The position numbers and the translations under genes are program-made. The notes beneath the pieces were generated by a model, which had not been told where the DNA came from, ran no database searches, and saw only the letters and a program-made list of their open reading frames with translations. Positions 30,597-40,121 of a stretch of DNA of 57,352 nucleotides are shown piece after piece; the first letter of the stretch is position 1; each line of letters opens with the position of its first letter. Origin of the DNA: a virus (taxonomy: Duplodnaviria; Caudoviricetes); IMG/VR virus record IMGVR_UViG_3300044960_000873, positions 1 through 57,352 of that record. One strand, written 5' to 3'.

Positions 30597-30808
30597 GCCG
30601 CGCCGCGTTCCTGGTCGCTGGCCAGGAACTCGTGCGGCAGTTGCAGGACCCGAGCCGCCTCGCGGGCGAACTGCTCGGTCATCGGGTAGCGGCCGGCCAG
30701 GATGCGCGAGACCGTCTCGCGCCGATACCCGGTGGCATCGGCCAGCCACACCGTCGTGCGGCCCTGCACCTGGAGCACGCGGCGCAGTTTGCGCCGGTCG
30801 AACGCCAT
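30593..30808 (-). CDS. Cro-like repressor
   Basis: Small HTH (WLADATGYRRETVSRIL) divergent from cI. Confidence 0.8.
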   Translation of the reverse strand: MAFDRRKLRRVLQVQGRTTVWLADATGYRRETVSRILAGRYPMTEQFAREAARVLQLPHEFLASDQERGAA

Positions 30809-30825
30809 GCCCACCTCCCGTTCGG

Positions 30826-30935
30826 CTCATCATGGATATATCACGTTGTCATGCATGATACGGTGATGCCCGTGAGAATGTCAATGGTCTGTGGTATGGA
30901 TATTCACGTGAACACACGTGATATCAAACTCACGT
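30826..30935. promoter_or_regulatory. Lysis/lysogeny switch: leftward promoter and operator-like repeats
   Basis: Minus strand TTGACA(30884-30879)-N18-TATCAT; repeated GATAT(A)TCACGT motifs. Confidence 0.7.
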
Positions 30936-31591
30936 TCGGGGAATGGCTGGACGATCAGCTCGTCGCGGCTGGGTACAACCAGACCACGTTCGCCGAGGCG
31001 ATCGGGGTTGCCCAAAGCGCGGTGAACCAGTGGGTGAATAACGTCCAGCCGCCGAGCCGGCGCAACGTCGCCCGCATCGCCCGCGCACTGAACATGGCGG
31101 CATCCGACATCGAGGCCCGGATCGATCGACGCCGGAGAGGAGGTCTGCATGCTGCCACTGCTGTCCGGGTCGCCCGGAATGTCGCCACGTTCAGGGTGCA
31201 CGGCGTTGTTCCCGCCGATGCATTCCGTTGGGCCGACAGTGGAGGCGAGTGCGGCGAGGTGGATGTTCCACTATCCTGGCTGCAAGGCCGCGACCAACGC
31301 GAGTTTTTCGTCGTCGAGGTCTCCGGGGATTGTCTCAGTTCCCTCGGCATTGGCGATGGCGCGTATCTGTTCTGCCAGCGCGCCACGCGGTTGCCGCGTG
31401 ACGGCGACCTGGTCATCGTCCGCATCGGGGACGAGGTAACCTGCAAACGCTGGCGCTGGGCGGGTGGGCGCGTGGAACTCGTCGACGGCGACGAGCGCGT
31501 CGTCTATTCCTGTGACCCGCGCTCCAGCGAACTGCACGTCGAGGGCTACGTCATCGCCGAGATCCAACCCCACGGCAGCGTGCACACATGA
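30896..31591 (+). CDS. CI-like repressor (XRE HTH plus S24 peptidase)
   Basis: HTH NQTTFAEAIGVAQSAVNQW; S24-like VSGDCL and VTCKR (Cys at the usual catalytic Ser position). Confidence 0.88.
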   Translation: MDIHVNTRDIKLTFGEWLDDQLVAAGYNQTTFAEAIGVAQSAVNQWVNNVQPPSRRNVARIARALNMAASDIEARIDRRRRGGLHAATAVRVARNVATFRVHGVVPADAFRWADSGGECGEVDVPLSWLQGRDQREFFVVEVSGDCLSSLGIGDGAYLFCQRATRLPRDGDLVIVRIGDEVTCKRWRWAGGRVELVDGDERVVYSCDPRSSELHVEGYVIAEIQPHGSVHT

Positions 31592-31762: not shown

Positions 31763-32869
31763 ATGACCCGCGATTACCCCGGCGTGCGCATCCTCCCCTC
31801 GGGCGCGATCGCCTACACGATCCGCGAACCCGACCATGCGGGGATCGTCCGCCATCGCACGATCACCCGCGACCAGGTCACCGGCGAACCGTTCCGCACC
31901 CCGGCCGCCGCCCATCGCGCCCGGTTGCGCCACCAGGCGCGCATCGCCGCCGGCCAACGTCCCCGCTCGCGCGAAACAACCGGGAGCTACGCTCGCGCCT
32001 GGCTGCGAACCAGGCGCGACCTGAAGCCCTCCAGCCTGCGCGTCTACCGCTACGCCGTCGAGCAGGTCGTCGCCGGGCTGGGGGAGATCTCCCTCGCCGA
32101 GCTGCGGCCGTCCGATGTACGTCGTTTCCTCGACATGCTCGTCCAGCGCGGTCTCGCCCCGCGCTCGATCCGCCTGATCCACACCGTCCTACATATGCTC
32201 CTGGAGGCGGCGCTGGCCGACGATCTCGTCGGCCGCAACCCCGCCCGGCGCGTCCATCCACCGAGCGTGACCAAACACGAGGTCGTCGTCTGGCAGCCCG
32301 AGGAGATCCGCCGCTTCCTCGCCGTCGCCGACGCGCATGCATACGCCGCGCTCTGGCGGCTCGCGCTGGAGACGGGCATGCGCATCGGCGAGTTGCGCGG
32401 GCTGAGCTGGCGCGACATCGACCTCGCCGCCGGCCAACTCACCGTGCGCCGCACCGCGACCGTCGATGACCGAGGAAGGGCGATCCTCGGCGACAGCCCG
32501 AAGTCGCCGGCCGGCCGGCGGACGCTGCCCCTCTCCCCCCGCGTGGTCGCGCTCCTCGCTGCCCAGCGGGCCAACGCCACGAGTACGCTGGTGTTCCCCG
32601 GCCCCTCGGGCGACCTGCTGCGCCGCGACACGCTGGGCCGCTGGTTCCGCGCGCTCGTCGCCGAAGCCGGCGTGCGCCCGATCCGGCTGCACGACCTGCG
32701 CCACACCGCAGCGACCATCCTCCTGCTGCAGGGAGTCCCGGTGCACGTCGTCGCGGCGGTGCTGGGTCACAGCAACCCGAGCGTCACCCTCGCCGTCTAT
32801 GCCCACCTGATCCCCGGTTCGACCCGCGACGCGCTCGAGCTGCTGGCGCGCTACCTCGACGCCATGTAG
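31763..32869 (+). CDS. int: Tyrosine integrase
   Basis: TGMRIGE, PKS, HDLRHT, LGHS, VYAH catalytic motifs. Confidence 0.96.
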   Translation: MTRDYPGVRILPSGAIAYTIREPDHAGIVRHRTITRDQVTGEPFRTPAAAHRARLRHQARIAAGQRPRSRETTGSYARAWLRTRRDLKPSSLRVYRYAVEQVVAGLGEISLAELRPSDVRRFLDMLVQRGLAPRSIRLIHTVLHMLLEAALADDLVGRNPARRVHPPSVTKHEVVVWQPEEIRRFLAVADAHAYAALWRLALETGMRIGELRGLSWRDIDLAAGQLTVRRTATVDDRGRAILGDSPKSPAGRRTLPLSPRVVALLAAQRANATSTLVFPGPSGDLLRRDTLGRWFRALVAEAGVRPIRLHDLRHTAATILLLQGVPVHVVAAVLGHSNPSVTLAVYAHLIPGSTRDALELLARYLDAM

Positions 32870-33111
32870 CACGTTTGGCGCACGCGCGCGCTAACATGTC
32901 CCAGCATCCCCAGCCAAATGCGGGTCTGGCGCAAAACCGCGTTAGAGTTGTGTTAGCGGAAGCGCGCTTTCCGGCGATCAGCGGCGGGAAGCCGGCCGGC
33001 CGCAACCCCCAAAACCCGCGTACGGACGCCGCAGCCCCAGTCGCCAGGGCACGCCGGGGCGTGCGACAGTAGCACGCCATTGCAGCCAGTCTGTAGCACG
33101 TTTGTAGCACG
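32865..33111. other. Probable attP: arm-type repeats and a tRNA-3'-like core
   Basis: GTAGCACG-containing repeats at 32865, 33069, 33092, 33103; CCAGCATCCCCAGCCA (32901-32916) resembles a tRNA-Gln 3' end. Confidence 0.55.
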
Positions 33112-33128
33112 ATGGGCCGCTGAGGGTA

Positions 33129-33157
33129 TTGACAAACGCTGAATCGTGCGCTATTAT
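33129..33157 (+). promoter_or_regulatory. Sigma70-type promoter
   Basis: TTGACA-N17-TATTAT. Confidence 0.85.
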
Positions 33158-33224
33158 TACGCCATGAGAGGAGGCCCCGCTGGCGAGGGACGCCACAGGG
33201 GCCGGGACACGGAAGGGAACTCCG

Positions 33225-33422
33225 ATGCGCAGCCGATTCACCACCATCCGCGACCTCGTCGCCGCCGTCTACTATGCCGACCCCATGCTCTTCGAGGAGC
33301 TGGGCGAGCAGCGCGTCGAGGAGATCGCCTGCGAGGTGCATACCTCGCGCTACGAGGACATCGACGACGAGGAGTTCGACATGATCCTCGCGCAGGCCCT
33401 GCGCGAGGCGGTAGGCATGTAG
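33225..33422 (+). CDS. Small acidic hypothetical protein
   Basis: First gene after the promoter; TAG stop begins the repeat module. Confidence 0.7.
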   Translation: MRSRFTTIRDLVAAVYYADPMLFEELGEQRVEEIACEVHTSRYEDIDDEEFDMILAQALREAVGM

Positions 33423-33454
33423 CACACCCTGGGGGCGGCTCGCCACCGCCCCCA

Positions 33455-33505
33455 CCGGTCGCCGGAACTGTCCGGCCTGACGAGCCCCGCGAGGGGCGAA
33501 ACCGG
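33455..33505 (+). ncRNA. Hammerhead ribozyme type III (HH1)
   Basis: CCG-GUC, stem I GCCGGA/UCCGGC, CUGACGA, stem II GCCCC/GGGGC, GAAA-CCGG; predicted cleavage after 33460. Confidence 0.92.
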
Positions 33506-33518
33506 GAGGAGACCCACG

Positions 33519-33824
33519 ATGACCAGCAGCCGCGATGCACGCGTCCCCTATATCGTCACGCCACGCGCCGTGCGCGCCGCTCCTGACGCCGGCTACGACG
33601 CCTGGGCGGCGCTCGCCCGGGACGTCATGGAGCGCGCCGCCGGGGCGTTCCCGGCGGGCGTCGATCGCGAGGCGCGCCTCGGCCTGATCGGCCGGGCGCT
33701 CGTGGACGCCGGGTTCGTCGCCCCGGCGTTCCTCGACGGGCAAGCCGCCGTCTGGTCCGTGCCCGGGACCGGCGGCGTCGAGATCACGTATCCGTGGGAG
33801 GTCTACACGGCCATCCACGGATAG
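33519..33824 (+). CDS. Hypothetical protein flanked by ribozymes
   Basis: GGAGG RBS; bounded by HH1 and HH2. Confidence 0.75.
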   Translation: MTSSRDARVPYIVTPRAVRAAPDAGYDAWAALARDVMERAAGAFPAGVDREARLGLIGRALVDAGFVAPAFLDGQAAVWSVPGTGGVEITYPWEVYTAIHG

Positions 33825-33857
33825 CACACCCTGGGGGCCGGCTCGCCACCGGCCCCA

Positions 33858-33910
33858 CCCGTCCGCCGGGACAGTCCGGCGCTGACGAGCCCCTCGCGGG
33901 GCGAAACGGG
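33858..33910 (+). ncRNA. Hammerhead ribozyme type III (HH2)
   Basis: CCC-GUC, stem I CGCCGGG/UCCGGCG, CUGACGA, stem II, GAAA-CGGG; compensatory changes vs HH1; cleavage after 33863. Confidence 0.92.
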
Positions 33911-33922
33911 AGGAGAGCCACG

Positions 33923-34123
33923 ATGACAGAGTTGTACGGGCCGATTACCCGCGTGCGGTTTGCACGCGGGACGCTGGACATCCAGCGCTTCTTCGGCGGG
34001 TTCTTGCTGATCGCACGGGACCTCGTTGGCCACATCGTGGCCGAGGAGGCCCGGGACGACCTCACTGGCCGCGATATTGCGGCCTTCGCCCTGCGCGCGG
34101 GCCTCCTGCGCAGGGCGAAGTAA
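33923..34123 (+). CDS. Small hypothetical protein
   Basis: GGAGG RBS after HH2; MTELYGP. Confidence 0.7.
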   Translation: MTELYGPITRVRFARGTLDIQRFFGGFLLIARDLVGHIVAEEARDDLTGRDIAAFALRAGLLRRAK

Positions 34124-34234
34124 CATTTGCTTCCGACGCACGCCGGCCCGGCTCACCACCGGGCCGGCGAGAACTAGGCGATCAGTCGTCGGGCCGGGAT
34201 CACTCCCCGGCCCTCTTCGCGTGAGGAGAAAACA

Positions 34235-34585
34235 ATGGATCGCTTCGGCGCCGACCTCCTGTCCGCCGCCGTGGATCGCGCCGTCGAGGCCCTCGCTGGG
34301 CCGGCCGGCGCGCAGGTGGTCTCGGAAGCTCGCGCGCGCCACGTGTGCGAGCAGCTCGCCCAGCGCGCCTACCAGGCCGGGCGCGACGCAGCCATCCGCG
34401 AGCTGCGTACCACCGACGACGCCATCGCGGAACTCGGCCGCAGCCGGGCGACCATCACCGCCCTCGCCCGCCGGTACGAGATCGGCTGGCGCATCGGGCG
34501 GGATTGGCTGTTCCGCCCGGACGACATCGAGCGCCTGCGCGCCATCATCGCCGGCCTCCGCCCCGGCCGGCCACGTCAGTCGTGA
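34235..34585 (+). CDS. HTH DNA-binding protein (excisionase/MerR-like)
   Basis: TTDDAIAELGRSRATI...GRDWLF. Confidence 0.75.
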   Translation: MDRFGADLLSAAVDRAVEALAGPAGAQVVSEARARHVCEQLAQRAYQAGRDAAIRELRTTDDAIAELGRSRATITALARRYEIGWRIGRDWLFRPDDIERLRAIIAGLRPGRPRQS

Positions 34586-34604
34586 AGTTCCTCCTCGTCA
34601 CCCA

Positions 34605-34633
34605 TTGACAATGTACACGATACCGTGTATATT
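34605..34633 (+). promoter_or_regulatory. Sigma70-type promoter with an embedded palindrome
   Basis: TTGACA-N17-TATATT; TACACG-N4-CGTGTA overlaps the spacer and -10. Confidence 0.8.
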
Positions 34634-34658
34634 GTGGGTGTAGCCAGAGGAGGCGGCG

Positions 34659-35201
34659 ATGATCACCACGGCGAGCCCCAACAGCGCGATCCCCGGCGAG
34701 GCCTTCCGCGCCTCGCACCCGACAGACCGTTGGGGCGCGCGCCGGAACGGCCACTGGGCCGCCTACGACCGCGACGGCAACCGTCTCGCCGTCGGGGCGG
34801 ACTGGTGCACCGCCCCGACGGCCGCCGAGCTCGAGGCCTGGGACGCCGAGGCGCAGGCGGCGGCCGCCCGCGTGGCCGCCTGGCCGGTCGACGTCATCGG
34901 CCAGGCGCTCTACATCCGCTTCGGCCGTCTGCCGCGCGCTGGCCGGTCGCGCAACTACGCGACCGGCCAGCTCGAGCGGGGCGTCAGCGTCTACCGCGCG
35001 CGGTACAACGCGCGCACCGACGCGCTCGACGCCTCGAGTGCACTAGCCGGCACGTACGTTCACTACCTCATCGCCGGCAAGCGGCCCTACCTGGTCGCGG
35101 GCGATGAGGTCGGCACCGGCTCCGACGGCGAGCCGGTGCTCGCCAACGCCCGCGTGGTGGCGGAACTCGTCGCCACCCCCGACGGGTTCCGCATCGCCTA
35201 G
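34659..35201 (+). CDS. Hypothetical protein
   Basis: GGAGG RBS; YIRFG...SRNY...GVSVY. Confidence 0.75.
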   Translation: MITTASPNSAIPGEAFRASHPTDRWGARRNGHWAAYDRDGNRLAVGADWCTAPTAAELEAWDAEAQAAAARVAAWPVDVIGQALYIRFGRLPRAGRSRNYATGQLERGVSVYRARYNARTDALDASSALAGTYVHYLIAGKRPYLVAGDEVGTGSDGEPVLANARVVAELVATPDGFRIA

Positions 35202-35234
35202 CACTCCCTGGGGGCCGGTGGCGAGCCGGCCCCT

Positions 35235-35285
35235 CCGGTCGCCGGAACTGTCCGGCCTGACGAGCCCCGCGAGGGGCGAAACCGG
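35235..35285 (+). ncRNA. Hammerhead ribozyme type III (HH3)
   Basis: Identical core to HH1; cleavage after 35240. Confidence 0.92.
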
Positions 35286-35298
35286 GAGGAGAGCCACG

Positions 35299-35856
35299 AT
35301 CGAGGTCGCGTTCATCCGCTTCGAGGTCGATTCCGGGATCCTCCTTTTCGGGTCCTCTAACCCCGACGAGGAGGGCTGCGACCGGTGGGCGTCGGCCCAC
35401 CGGTTCGGGGAAAAGGTCGCCGACCTCATGCGTCGGGAGTTCCCCGACGCCGAGGTCCTCTTCAGCGTCGCGCTGCCGGGCACTGCCCGGCACGGCGTCA
35501 CGACCGACACCGACGACCCTGAGACCGTCGGTGAGGTCTACTCGTGGGCGCTCAACCGCGTGCTCGGCGAGGGAGACTGGCTGGTCTCCCTCGACCTGGA
35601 CGACCCGGACTGCCCGATCAGCATCCTCCGCCACGCCACGAGCGGCGAGGACTTCCTCGCCCTCGTGGACGACGCGCTGGTCGTCGTCCAGGTGCTGGGC
35701 CCGCTGGAGGGCCGCACGGTGGCCGCTCTCCAGCGCCGCGACATCACCGTGGCCCAGGTCATCCAGCAGGTTCCCACCTGGTGGGAGCCTGCGGACGACG
35801 ACGACGACGCGTTCATCGCCACCCCCGACATATCCGACCAGTATCCCGCCGCCTAG
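35299..35856 (+). CDS. Acidic hypothetical protein with apparent ATC start
   Basis: Same RBS context as the HH2 gene (GGAGGAGAGCCACG) but ATC instead of ATG, in frame. Confidence 0.6.
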   Translation: MEVAFIRFEVDSGILLFGSSNPDEEGCDRWASAHRFGEKVADLMRREFPDAEVLFSVALPGTARHGVTTDTDDPETVGEVYSWALNRVLGEGDWLVSLDLDDPDCPISILRHATSGEDFLALVDDALVVVQVLGPLEGRTVAALQRRDITVAQVIQQVPTWWEPADDDDDAFIATPDISDQYPAA

Positions 35857-35889
35857 CACTCTCTGGGGGCCGGCTCGCCACCGGCCCCA

Positions 35890-35942
35890 TCCGTCTGCCG
35901 GGAGTGTCCGGCACTGACGAGCCCCGCGAGGGGCGAAACGGG
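35890..35942 (+). ncRNA. Hammerhead ribozyme type III (HH4)
   Basis: UCC-GUC, stem I UGCCGGG/UCCGGCA, CUGACGA, stem II, GAAA-CGGG; cleavage after 35895. Confidence 0.92.
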
Positions 35943-35955
35943 ACGGGAGGACCCG

Positions 35956-36300
35956 ATGTACCACGAGGTGTCGAGCGACGTCGACCGCGCGGGGGCTGTG
36001 ATCCCGCGCGTCTGGTGCGACCGAACTGGGGCTGTGCGCCTGAGCGGCGCGCACAGCCCGGAGCAGGCTATGGTCGCCGAGACGGTCGGGTACCACAACG
36101 TCGTTGCCGGCTCCGCCGGCGACGACGTCGCATTCATCGGTCGGCTGAACGCGCGCTGCCCGCAGGGGTGGCGCGTCATCGATGCCCGCGCGACGTTCTA
36201 CTCGGCCCCACGGGCCGGCGCGATCCGCATCGGACAGATGAAGTTCCGCCCGGGCGGCCCCGCCTGGGCGTTATACGCGGTACCGGCGGAGGGCCGCTAG
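35956..36300 (+). CDS. Hypothetical protein
   Basis: GGAGG RBS after HH4. Confidence 0.7.
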   Translation: MYHEVSSDVDRAGAVIPRVWCDRTGAVRLSGAHSPEQAMVAETVGYHNVVAGSAGDDVAFIGRLNARCPQGWRVIDARATFYSAPRAGAIRIGQMKFRPGGPAWALYAVPAEGR

Positions 36301-36505
36301 GCAGCCCTCCGGCCCGTTCCTGCTCCGGTACAACGGGGCTACGACCTATCTCGCCATCCTGGCCTGCCCGGCCTGCGGGCACCGGGACGAGATGTAGTCG
36401 CGCCGCCCGTCCCGTGGGGAGGACCACCGCCGGATCGTCGCCGGCCACGGGGCCCGCCGAAGCCCGGCAGCGGGCCGGGCTGGCCTAGAGGACTGAGAGG
36501 ACAAC

Positions 36506-37054
36506 ATGGATCCATCCCTGTCGGTCGTGCCCCTCCCTGTGCGTATCGCACAGGGCATCGCGCGCTCCCTCCACCACGCCTGCGCGTTGGAGGCGAGCGT
36601 AACTCGTGAATGGCGAGAGGCGCGTACTCTCGCCGAACTCAACGACATCTGGGCGGCCGGGGTGTGGTTGGCCCTGGCCGAGAACCCCGGCCGTTACCCC
36701 ACCAATATGCCGCCGCCCAGGTTCTGCTGGACGGCGTTCGATGGGGGACTCGAGCACACGACAGCGAGCGGCCGCCTGCACATCATCGTGCAGGACGAGG
36801 ATATGCCGCTCCACATCACCGCCTGGGCCGGCCCAGACGGTGACCGCCCGGCGACTTCGGTCGCCGAGTTCTGGCTCGCCTACGACAGTGGGCGTCTGGT
36901 CGCAGACGCCCAGATTCTCCGGCCAGACCTGATCGAGGGGCGCGAGGATCGCGTCGCCCCGATCGGTGACCTGGTGCACGTCCTCCGGGATCGGTACGGC
37001 GTCCAGTGGGACGTCATCACGCCGGAGGGAGAGGAGGTGCTGAGCATCGTCTAA
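36506..37054 (+). CDS. Hypothetical protein (paralog A)
   Basis: Shares N-terminus and LRPDLIEGREDR with 37163-37801. Confidence 0.75.
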   Translation: MDPSLSVVPLPVRIAQGIARSLHHACALEASVTREWREARTLAELNDIWAAGVWLALAENPGRYPTNMPPPRFCWTAFDGGLEHTTASGRLHIIVQDEDMPLHITAWAGPDGDRPATSVAEFWLAYDSGRLVADAQILRPDLIEGREDRVAPIGDLVHVLRDRYGVQWDVITPEGEEVLSIV

Positions 37055-37162
37055 TCCCCCAGTCCCCAGTTCCGGTCCGCCGGACAGGGCGCTCGCGACG
37101 CCCCTGGGGACCCGCCGAAGCCCGGCGCTGGGCCGGGCTGGCACAACGAGAGGAGTTCCCCG

Positions 37163-37801
37163 GTGGATCCGTTTCTGCCAGTCGTCCCCATCCCCATCCG
37201 CATCGCCCAGGGCGTTGCGCTCGGGCTCGGTCACGCCTGCGCTGGCTACGCGCAGGCGACCGGCGAGTGGATGCGCGCAGTCACGCTGCGCGAACTCTCG
37301 GCATGGTGGACCATCGCCTACGCCGAGGGGACGCGCCGCGACCGCGAGTATTTTCAGTCTCTGGGCATTCACCCCGCTCCGTTCGTCGGCGGCGTCTCCG
37401 GATGGAGCGCTGGTCAGGACGGGCCAGTGCCCACACTGGAGTGGACGACAGCGACCGGTCGGCTGCACGTTGTGGTCCGCGACCAGACGCCACTGCCGTC
37501 GGTCATCGCACGAATCACGATCTGGGCCGGACCGGCTGACGACCGGCCCCCGACCGAGATCGTGATGCTAACAATCAGCAGCACGATCTCGTCCAACGGG
37601 TTCGTGGCCGAGGCCAAGATGCTTCGGCCTGACCTGATCGAGGGGCGGGAAGACCGGCTGATTGTGATCCCAGACGTGGTCCGGGGACTCACAGAGGTCG
37701 GTCTTGACCTCCGTAACCCCGAAGCCGACAGCGAGACCATGCCGTCGGCGAAGGAACTCGTCGACCGGGCGTTCCGGGCCCGGTACGGAAAGGATGACTG
37801 A
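37163..37801 (+). CDS. Hypothetical protein (paralog B)
   Basis: See paralog A. Confidence 0.75.
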   Translation: MDPFLPVVPIPIRIAQGVALGLGHACAGYAQATGEWMRAVTLRELSAWWTIAYAEGTRRDREYFQSLGIHPAPFVGGVSGWSAGQDGPVPTLEWTTATGRLHVVVRDQTPLPSVIARITIWAGPADDRPPTEIVMLTISSTISSNGFVAEAKMLRPDLIEGREDRLIVIPDVVRGLTEVGLDLRNPEADSETMPSAKELVDRAFRARYGKDD

Positions 37802-38123: not shown

Positions 38124-38184
38124 TCGTTCAGCACGCCGGCCCGGCTCACCACCGGGCCGGCGGGGAGGAGATTGTGGGGGAGCA

Positions 38185-38580
38185 ATGACCAACGACCTGC
38201 TCACCCTCGCTCAGGCGGCCCAACTGGCCGGGGTCAACCCTGCCAGCCTCCGCCGCGCCATCGCGCGCGGCACCCTCGCCGCCACCAAATACGGCAAAAC
38301 CTATCTCGTCACGGCTGACGAGATCGCCCGCTTCATCCGCGAGCGCCGGTTCGCGGACCGCAGGAGGGAGATACCCGGTATGCGCATGTACGTCACCGAG
38401 TCCCTCCCCAACCACTGGGTCATCAACGACGCCACCGGGTGGTGGCTCGTCCCCAACGTCCCCGGCGGCTGGACCCGCCGCACCGCCTATCGCGGACACG
38501 TCGCCAGCCTCGCCCCCGTTTCCGTCGGCGTCGCCGCGGGTATGGCCCGCCTCGTCGGTTACGAGGAGCCCACGCCATGA
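38185..38580 (+). CDS. HTH_17/excisionase-like DNA-binding protein
   Basis: LLTLAQAAQLAGVNPASLRRAIARG; ATGA-coupled to tnpB. Confidence 0.8.
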   Translation: MTNDLLTLAQAAQLAGVNPASLRRAIARGTLAATKYGKTYLVTADEIARFIRERRFADRRREIPGMRMYVTESLPNHWVINDATGWWLVPNVPGGWTRRTAYRGHVASLAPVSVGVAAGMARLVGYEEPTP

Positions 38581-39761
38581 CCGACGCCACCCGCACCTAC
38601 CGGTTCCGCCTCTACCCCACGCCATCCCAGGCGGCCCGCCTCGACCTCTGGCTGATGCGCTGCCGCCATCTCTACAACGACATGCTGACCCAGCGCATCT
38701 GGTCATGGCAGACGCGCCGGGTATCGATCACCTATTACGACCAGCAGAACGCGCTGCCGGAAATCCGGCGCGCATTCCCGGAGTACGCCGAGCTCCCCTC
38801 GAACGTGCTCCAGAACGTCGCCCGCCGTGTCGATATCGCCTATCAGCGTTTCTTCCGGCACGGCGCGGGGTTCCCCAAATATCAGGGGTTCCGCCGCTAC
38901 AACTCGTTCTGCCTCCACTCCCCCAGCGGCTGGAAGCTCCGCCCCGGCCCCGGCCGCATGGGCCGGCTCTCGATCCTGCGCCTGGGGGATATCCCCGTGC
39001 GCGTCCACCGTCCAGTCGCGGGAGAATTGCGCACCTGCACCATCGTGCGCCAGGCCGGCCGCTGGTATGCCTGCATCACCGCCCGCCACGTGCCCATCCC
39101 CGAACTCCCGGCCAGCCCAGCCGCGGTCGGCGTCGACCTGCGCGTGGCCGAGCATTTCCTCGCTACGAGCGACGGGGAGTTGATCGACAACCCCCACCCG
39201 CTGGAGCAGGCATTACGCGACCTCGCCCGCATCCAGCGCACGGTCTCTCGCCGGCAACGCGGCAGCAACCGGCGCGAGGACGCCGTGCGCCAGCTCCAGC
39301 GGGCGCATCAGCGCGTCGCCAACCTGCGGCGCGAGTTCCACCACCGCCTCAGCCACGACCTGGTGACGCGTTACCAGGTGATCGTCGTCGAGGACATCTC
39401 CCCCCTGTTCATGGTCGAGCGCGCGCAACGCGACCCCTACCCGCGCAACCAGGCGCGGCGCGCGCTCGACTCCGGCTGGGGGCAGTTCCTCGGTCTGCTG
39501 GAGTACAAATGCCGCGACCTGGGGCGGATGTTCATCCGCGTCGAGCCGGCCATGACCAGTCAGACCTGCTCGCGCTGCGGGGCCGAGCACGATACCGGCC
39601 CAACCGAACGTATATTCCGTTGTCCGCAGTGTGGATGGGAGGTGCACCGGGCGATCAACGCTGCGCGCAATATCCTGGCGCGTGGCCTGGAGTTGGAGTA
39701 TCATTGCACCAACAGCCGACTACCGGCTGACGGGGACGGGGGGCAATGGCCCCCCGGATGA
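38577..39761 (+). CDS. tnpB: TnpB-family RNA-guided protein, predicted nuclease-dead
   Basis: TYRFRLYPT N-terminus, RuvC-I VGVDLR, RuvC-II VVED, TSQTCSRC/CPQC zinc finger, RuvC-III HRAINAARNI lacking the Asp. Confidence 0.92.
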   Translation: MTDATRTYRFRLYPTPSQAARLDLWLMRCRHLYNDMLTQRIWSWQTRRVSITYYDQQNALPEIRRAFPEYAELPSNVLQNVARRVDIAYQRFFRHGAGFPKYQGFRRYNSFCLHSPSGWKLRPGPGRMGRLSILRLGDIPVRVHRPVAGELRTCTIVRQAGRWYACITARHVPIPELPASPAAVGVDLRVAEHFLATSDGELIDNPHPLEQALRDLARIQRTVSRRQRGSNRREDAVRQLQRAHQRVANLRREFHHRLSHDLVTRYQVIVVEDISPLFMVERAQRDPYPRNQARRALDSGWGQFLGLLEYKCRDLGRMFIRVEPAMTSQTCSRCGAEHDTGPTERIFRCPQCGWEVHRAINAARNILARGLELEYHCTNSRLPADGDGGQWPPG

Positions 39762-39812
39762 ACCGTGGACTTCGCGCCCGTGGAGGTGAGCGATCCCGCG
39801 TACGAACGAGGT

Positions 39813-40024
39813 GTTCCGCCCACGCGTGCGGGGAGTAGGCGACAATCACCCAGTCGTTCTCCGAGTACAAGACGTTCCGCCCACGCGTGCGGGGAGTAGG
39901 CGTTCGCCATGGCCACGATATCTTTGGCGAGCTCGTTCCGCCCACGCGTGCGGGGAGTAGGCGGCAGCACCGTAATAGCAACCACGCGCCAAGTCGTTCC
40001 GCCCACGTGTGCGGGGAGTAGGCG
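39813..40024 (+). CRISPR. CRISPR mini-array: 4 repeats of 29 bp and 3 spacers of 32 bp, plus a degenerate trailer
   Basis: GTTCCGCCCACGCGTGCGGGGAGTAGGCG at 39813, 39874, 39935, 39996 (last with 1 mismatch); exact 61-bp period; remnant GCGAGGAATAGGCG ending at 40060. Confidence 0.93.
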
Positions 40025-40121
40025 AAATGCGCTGGATGCCTGTGCCGCGAGGAATAGGCGTAGACGCTGCCGGCCAGCACGCCGGTCCACTCGATGCAGT
40101 GCTGGTGTGACGAGGAAACAT

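Follow-up and report, generated by a model that had tools for sequence, protein, structure and literature searches.

Four type III hammerhead motifs in hairpin–ribozyme–Shine-Dalgarno cassettes between early genes of a putative hot-spring phage

A repeated intercistronic cassette

IMG/VR virus record IMGVR_UViG_3300044960_000873 is a linear sequence of 57,352 bases (68% G+C, ~83% complete), analyzed here in its entirety and referred to below as the window. Between positions 33420 and 35958 of its + strand, four copies of one cassette separate small genes. Each copy runs, in order, from a stop codon embedded in TAGCAC through a 7–9 nucleotide (nt) spacer, a GC hairpin, and a type III hammerhead ribozyme motif (HH1–HH4) to the Shine-Dalgarno (SD) sequence GGGAGG and the start codon of the next gene. 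The cassettes begin at 33420, 33822, 35199, and 35854. An earlier note on this DNA had described four such modules with one common layout, and the letters of the window bear this out. Judging from the sequence and its genomic setting, the four are probably active type III hammerheads, each part of a tripartite cassette that a temperate hot-spring phage carries between its genes.

The genes in question all lie on the + strand. The series opens with gpA (33225..33422; 65 amino acids [aa], no family), which ends in TAGCAC, followed by gpB (33519..33824; 101 aa, no family), gpC (33923..34123; 66 aa, no family), gpD (34235..34585; 116 aa, HTH_17/excisionase-like, E 1.5e-6), gpE (34659..35201; 180 aa, weak DUF6098 match), gpF (35299..35856; 185 aa, no family), and gpG (35956..36300; 114 aa, no family). 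The earlier note had singled out gpB and gpF as genes with a ribozyme on each side, an arrangement that is plainly seen. It had also invoked two strong promoters, and both are consensus matches at 11 of 12 positions: P1 (33129..33157, + strand, TTGACA-17-TATTAT) and P2 (34605..34633, + strand, TTGACA-17-TATATT). A promoter search of the region returned 3 sites against 0.7 expected. The first codon of gpF is ATC where the three other cassettes have ATG; the nearest canonical in-frame start lies more than 120 nt further downstream. A contig from an independent sequencing run covers 35199–35349, including this ATC, without differing letters.

The first module comprises a 9-base-pair (bp) hairpin with loop CUCGCCA (33430..33454), 7 nt past the stop and 0 nt from stem III, then HH1 (33455..33505, predicted cut after 33460) and the SD GGGAGGAG of gpB (33504..33511), which overlaps the end of stem III. 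Module 2 has an 8-bp hairpin with the same loop (33834..33856) and HH2 (33858..33910, predicted cut after 33863, loop II UCGC). In module 3, the hairpin (35210..35234) carries the loop UGGCGAG, inverted relative to the other three, and is followed by HH3 (35234..35286, predicted cut after 35240). Module 4 consists of a hairpin at 35866..35888 and HH4 at 35890..35942, with a predicted cut after 35895. All these features are on the + strand. The cuts predicted from our parse lie one nt upstream of each of the 5' ends proposed earlier (33461, 33864, 35241, and 35896) and so agree with them. Across the cassettes, the GC hairpins are perfectly paired over 8–10 bp and stand −1 to +1 nt from stem III. 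GGGAGG directly follows stem III in HH1–HH3, consistent with the earlier description of a stem that abuts or overlaps the SD, and is separated from it by 5 nt in HH4.

The pattern CTGANGAG-N8-24-CGAAAC occurs four times in the 57,352-base window, against 0.02 occurrences expected, and none of 100 shuffles reached that count. The four hammerheads fall within 2.5 kb and share the orientation of the genes. Modules 1 and 3 are 96% alike over 75 nt, and modules 2 and 4 are 89% alike over 96 nt, giving an A-B/A-B order. Segmental duplication was considered as the origin of this order and rejected because the ribozyme-flanked proteins are mutually unrelated (best E value 0.25 or worse, gpH and gpI excepted).

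Two loops depart from the others in a particular way. The hairpin loop of module 3 (UGGCGAG, 35218–35226) is the exact reverse complement of the CUCGCCA in other modules, and loop II of HH2 (UCGC, 33893–33896) is the exact reverse complement of the GCGA in other copies. This looks like DNA-level inversion of perfect palindromes and suggests that the loop sequence is under loose constraint.

The window also holds hairpins of the same family that lack a ribozyme. One follows the TAA of gpC (34138..34169, + strand, loop CUCACCA); directly after the second (38131..38162, + strand) come GGGAGGAG and then an HTH_17 gene that starts at 38185. The two are an exact 32-nt repeat. With filters switched off, a whole-cassette covariance model gave weak matches at 38124–38194 (21.5 bits) and 34127–34254 (15.1 bits) and no fifth full copy in the window.

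Assignment to the type III hammerhead class

In our parse, all four copies contain a GUC cleavage site, the CUGACGA and GAA cores, and the A15.1-U16.1 pair. The conserved core (C3, U4, G5, A6, N7, G8, A9, G12, A13, A14, A15.1-U16.1, and H17) is present in each. Stem I measures 6–7 bp, stem II 5 bp (GCCCC/GGGGC), and stem III 5–6 bp. The core-adjacent pairs (1.1-2.1, 10.1-11.1, and 15.1-16.1) are all standard, with no mispair. Loops close stems I and II and stem III is open, which is the type III topology. Among the stem cells, 98.9% are paired, compared with 38–60% once the partners are slid. Every sequence feature that we tested, cores, stems, and topology included, thus agrees with the type III identity put forward in the earlier note. 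In their main text, Perreault et al. 2011 (PMC3088659) accept as hammerheads those motifs that have all core nucleotides and no mispair adjoining the core; since all core nucleotides are kept and no mispair touches the core, all four copies pass these published rules.

RF00008 is the sole Rfam family that matches the copies at E < 0.01. It scored HH2 at 35.8 bits and HH4 at 30.3 bits in a 3.4-kb scan and HH1 at 35.2 bits when scanned alone; the core and stems of HH3 are identical to those of HH1. The window copies resemble the type III members of this family in core, three helices, open stem III, and GUC site, and differ from them in their low scores (30–36 bits), a short stem III, and tetraloops at both loops. 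Calculated folds place the hammerhead 0–4.1 kcal/mol above the minimum free energy (MFE) structure at 37 °C and 0–2.3 kcal/mol above it at 65 °C. The higher temperature is relevant because the sequencing runs with matching DNA come from hot springs and microbial mats, although some of these metagenomes may be the source of the record itself. None of the runs listed is recorded as RNA, and the four that were compared with the window consist of contigs, in which transcript ends are not visible. One piece that crosses HH3 is labeled "RNA? (probably DNA)" and is not readable as uncleaved RNA.

Comparison of the four copies reveals one stem III pair that is changed on both sides, from C-G in HH1 and HH3 to G-C in HH2 and HH4. 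HH2 and HH4 also have one additional core-proximal stem I pair (C-G and U-A, respectively). Two pair changes among the four copies are one-sided.

Relatives of the cassette

Neither the region nor gpE matched any of 50,697 phage records by blastn or tblastn. A search with the exact stem II pattern across viral, genome, and metagenome contigs returned 0, 0, and 6 matches, respectively. Among the six, locus L125 is the only relative; the other five are different hammerheads. L125 is a metagenome contig of 1,071 nt (77% GC) whose hammerhead shares stem II and its loop with the window copies but not stems I and III. This ribozyme has an abutting hairpin, and an ATG lies 6 nt past stem III.

A second relative, L129, belongs to the same contig as L130 and L132. 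It encodes a gpE homologue (35–40% identity) under a consensus promoter, and this gene ends in TAGCAC followed by a hairpin and then a type III hammerhead. The L129 hammerhead (43.5 bits) keeps the core while all three stems are changed with respect to the window. With L125 and L129 added, which contribute only two extra sequences, all three stems vary and the core is constant; all 13 conserved core positions are intact in the four copies and both relatives. These two loci appear to be better evidence for the fold than covariation within the window.

In the next intergenic gap of L129 (3693–3805), a hairpin with loop CCCACCA, similar to the CUCRCCA of the window, is followed by ~70 structured bases. 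Our descriptor found no hammerhead in this gap, and Rfam gave no match at E ≤ 1.

The gpE protein has 23 homologues in metagenomes, and an alignment search found none in genome contigs. A back-translated DGEPVLANA pattern was found only in L129's contig and in one chance match (L131). For gpF, viral contigs held no relative. Among 67 viral loci with a gpE homologue, a type III hammerhead lies just downstream in none, a type I hammerhead in 1, and any flanking hammerhead is present in 3. On this count, a link between the hammerhead and the gpE gene family was rejected. In the type I case (L135, ~2915–2990), the CUGAUGA core of the hammerhead contains the TGA stop codon of the gpE-family gene.

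A hairpin companion of type III hammerheads

A looser core pattern applied to IMG/VR gave at least 120 loci, chosen solely by one stem II pattern. Unless stated otherwise, the counts that follow are among the loci listed. Two to six hammerheads occur on 32 locus-strands. A GC hairpin of at least 5 bp was scored as abutting if it ended −2 to +4 nt from the 5' edge of the ribozyme. Such a hairpin accompanies 70% of distinct type III copies (23/33) and 4% of distinct type I copies (5/121), compared with 9.9% of random positions (n = 4,650). When each locus is counted once, the figures are 17/23 for type III and 5/78 for type I.

The spacing is also narrow. The gap between hairpin and stem III is −2 to +2 nt in 22 of the 23 cases, and the stop codon precedes the hairpin by a median of 8 nt, the spacer being 5–8 nt in 14 of the 19 copies that have an upstream open reading frame (ORF) end. 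With L125 and L129 included, an ORF of at least 40 codons starts within 45 nt downstream of 35 of 37 type III copies (control, 46.5%), and 22 of those 35 have an SD-like word (control, 10.2%).

The hairpin is thus not confined to this phage but recurs in unrelated viral contigs. Its specificity for type III suggests that it goes with the ribozyme as such and not with any intergenic gap. By topology, the upstream product of a type I hammerhead retains stems II and III at its 3' end after cleavage, while that of a type III hammerhead retains just 6–7 unpaired nt there unless a hairpin is added. The contrast between the two types is thus what a 3'-cap role of the hairpin predicts. The hairpin can be read equally well as stacking coaxially on stem III, which is short and open. 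It is quite possible, and we put this forward tentatively, that phage type III hammerheads include the GC hairpin, ending 0 ± 1 nt from the open stem III and starting 5–9 nt past the stop, as an integral accessory domain. It would stack on the 4–5 bp stem III to aid folding, then cap the 3' end of the upstream mRNA, and form with ribozyme and SD a portable cassette interchangeable with the ribozyme-free hairpin and SD (34138, 38131). No description of a hairpin companion or of SD coupling was found in the literature searched, with supplements, figures, and subscription journals outside the search.

A different arrangement is seen on the minus strand of locus L030, whose reverse complement has hammerheads at 2361 and 3855. 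There, the upstream TGA abuts stem III of the type III hammerhead, and the next ATG comes directly after stem III with no spacer and no SD, such that the ribozyme occupies the entire intergenic gap.

Genomic setting

By gene content, the cassettes lie in the early/lysogeny region of a temperate tailed phage. Upstream of the cassettes, the + strand block encodes a repressor with HTH and S24-peptidase domains (CI/LexA-type; 30632–31591) and a tyrosine integrase (31763–32869) that ends 586 nt before HH1. Genes for the portal, protease-capsid, DnaB, replication initiator, and endolysin proteins are on the opposite strand.

Immediately upstream of the −35 element of P1 lie three GTAGCACG repeats (33069..33112, + strand), which are probably operator-like, judging from sequence and position. 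TGTAGCACGTTTG is found at the integrase stop (32865), with a second copy at 33092. TAGCAC itself has 14 copies in the window against 10.6 expected, and 8 are on the + strand within 32867–35859: one at the integrase stop, three in GTAGCACG, and four at the cassette stops. It also opens the L129 cassette and does not open that of L125. The promoter-proximal GTAGCACG sites and the cassette sites have only the 6-mer in common. Stoperator-type repressor sites, which are 13-bp, asymmetric, oriented with transcription, and present in many copies genome-wide, were considered and set aside on that ground. Pairing of TAGCAC with loop I was likewise dropped, being possible by eye in module 4 alone. The sharing of TAGCAC may reflect a protein site, an RNA role, or coincidence.

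Downstream of gpG, the region 36449–37801 holds the tandem paralogues gpH (36506–37054) and gpI (37163–37801), which share 42% identity and repeat at a spacing of 657 nt; neither protein has a family match. Further along, the region 38439–40061 contains a TnpB-like protein of 440 aa (HTH_OrfB_IS605, OrfB_IS605, Cas12f1-like TNB). Fifty-one nt past its gene are four 29-nt direct repeats with three 32-nt spacers (39813–40024) and a degenerate fifth repeat. This 29 + 32 geometry is that of a type I-E CRISPR (clustered regularly interspaced short palindromic repeats) array, here in a phage in which cas genes are not seen. Neither the rest of the window nor the compared loci contain a match to the CRISPR-like spacers, and spacer 1 has 0 exact matches in IMG/VR viral contigs.

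Proposed function and alternative explanations

If the hammerheads are active, RNA polymerase would initiate at P1 (33129) and P2 (34605) and produce a polycistronic early RNA. As each cassette emerges, its hammerhead would fold and cut after GUC. The upstream mRNA would then end in a 2',3'-cyclic phosphate a few nt past a very stable GC hairpin, which would serve as a 3' cap and would probably also stack on the short stem III. The downstream mRNA would begin with a 5'-OH base-paired in stem I, and stems I and II would form a structured 5' cap, after which GGGAGG and the start codon would be free. Each gene would thereby have an mRNA of its own, with stability and translation independent of its neighbors.

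Cleavage of these copies, protection of the ends, and stacking are inferred. The earlier proposal of protected ends is plausible, with the predicted 5' product ending in a stable hairpin and the 3' product starting inside stem I. Self-processing into single-gene mRNAs, as also proposed there, is consistent with ribozymes that are co-oriented with the genes and downstream of two promoters, and the main text of PMC3088659 gives the same reading to comparable prophage clusters.

Several observations weigh against this interpretation. A whole-window Rfam search at gathering returned 0 matches, as RF00008 scores all four copies at 30–36 bits, under its gathering score of 48.5 bits; the Rfam check suggested by the earlier note thus recovered the right family, yet below the gathering score in every copy. 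The compensatory changes that the note had read as selection on the fold are real, yet as proof of selection they do not suffice by themselves, since 87 of 500 shuffles equaled the within-window covariation score. The copies are recent duplicates, 61–96% alike over 75 nt, and covariation inside the window is thin for this reason. The loops are only tetraloops (ACUG, ACAG, or AGUG versus GCGA or UCGC) with no evident complementarity, and the loop-loop or pseudoknot contact of fast natural hammerheads was not identified among the four copies; loop II of HH2 differs from that of the other copies. For the survey, the hairpin descriptor is our own and unvalidated, a single stem II pattern was used to pick the loci, those of related phages do not count as independent, and the hairpin is missing from 10 of 33 type III copies. 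Finally, a 5'-OH is not protective in every host, as RNase J1 degrades the 5'-OH product of glmS.

Other roles for the cassette can be envisaged. The RNA could be a translation switch in which the stretch after the stop (CACUCCC or similar) pairs with GGGAG of the SD and cleavage parts this anti-SD from the SD, turning on the downstream gene. The MFE folds of modules 2–4 do pair CCCU, CUCCC, or CUCUC with GGGA(G), and in module 3 an outer helix (GC.CUCC with GGAG.GC) is compatible with the full hammerhead, as is a shorter one in module 2. An anti-SD helix alongside the hammerhead is therefore confined to these two modules: module 1 has no such helix, and that of module 4 takes the 3' strand of stem III and excludes the active fold. 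The ACCC, UCCC, and UCUC variants are moreover not matched by compensatory change on the SD side, and a helix of only 3–6 pairs would be marginal at 65 °C, which together make the switch unlikely. The simpler suggestion that cleavage of stem III itself unmasks the ribosome binding site is weak, given that this stem holds only the first two or three G residues of GGGAGG.

Alternatively, the unit might be mainly a hairpin-plus-SD cassette, acting as a site of host RNase processing or insulation, or as a recombination joint for swapping small genes, with the hammerhead an optional or decayed passenger of little activity. The elements at 34138–34169 and 38131–38162 retain the order of stop, hairpin, SD, and start without a ribozyme, the flanked genes are mutually unrelated, and the gpE-family loci seldom have a hammerhead nearby (0/67 type III just downstream, 3/67 of any kind). 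Decay would strike the core first, however, and it is the 13 core positions that are intact in all four copies and both relatives though the stems differ. The hairpin is also specific to type III topology (70% versus 4%), and we regard a passenger ribozyme as quite improbable. Circular mRNAs, to which the earlier note had pointed for the doubly flanked gpB and gpF, seem highly improbable. These genes would be released with 5'-OH and 2',3'-cyclic phosphate ends and closed by the reverse hammerhead reaction or an RtcB-type ligase, for which such ends have the right chemistry. Stem III pair 15.3-16.3 differs between neighboring copies, though, so that joining the 5' strand of HH2 or HH4 to the 3' strand of HH1 or HH3 (CCCGU or UCCGU against ACCGG) leaves a central C.C mismatch, and the hybrid self-ligating ribozyme would therefore be defective. 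Circular or spliced products were looked for in such clusters and none were detected, according to the main text of PMC3088659. Closure by an RtcB-type enzyme also seems improbable.

Comparison with known systems

Self-processing by active hammerheads, the interpretation that we prefer, has a close counterpart. Perreault et al. 2011 (PMC3088659) describe in their main text multiple prophage hammerheads near integrases that flank single genes. Three such clusters cleaved during in vitro transcription, and the authors read them as processing long phage transcripts into single-gene mRNAs. In the literature, prophage clusters of this kind are reported to cleave both in vitro and in vivo. The likeness extends to hammerheads within a few kb of one another, oriented with transcription, near an integrase, and flanking single genes or short blocks of varied identity. 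The window has four co-oriented hammerheads, two doubly flanked genes, and an integrase 586 nt before HH1. Unlike those clusters, as the main text presents them, the window copies belong to type III, have a very high GC content, and come from a hot-spring virus; each is also joined, in fixed geometry, to a hairpin on its upstream side and an SD on its downstream side. That main text mentions no hairpin companion: "hairpin" appears twice, on other matters, and "terminator," "Shine," and "ribosome binding" are absent, figures and supplements having been outside the search.

The architectural rule suggested by our survey is that in phage hammerheads of type III, and not of type I, stem III is joined to a hairpin whose distance from the stop codon of the preceding gene is fixed. 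If true, this rule would explain how both cleavage products are stabilized, improve the detection of phage hammerheads below the Rfam threshold, and provide a natural design for intercistronic insulators. The copies may also interest those seeking thermostable, compact ribozyme insulators. In synthetic insulators of the RiboJ type, credited to Lou et al. in 2012, a 5'-leader hammerhead is said to remove upstream RNA and leave a structured 5' end with an exposed ribosome binding site. The window copies differ in being natural, in lying between genes and not after a promoter, and in having an extra hairpin 5' of the ribozyme; the likeness is one of working, not of membership.

In T7-like phages, intercistronic RNase III hairpins divide the polycistronic early RNA into stable mRNAs of one gene each, capped by a hairpin at the 3' end. 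There, a host enzyme cuts the hairpin, whereas the RNA of the window carries its own catalyst. By analogy, the two ribozyme-free hairpin cassettes of the window might work in the T7 way. The punctuation of phage operons by clustered hammerheads is already known, and the window adds another case, that of a GC-rich hot-spring phage, to the many that punctuate their early operons with hammerheads.

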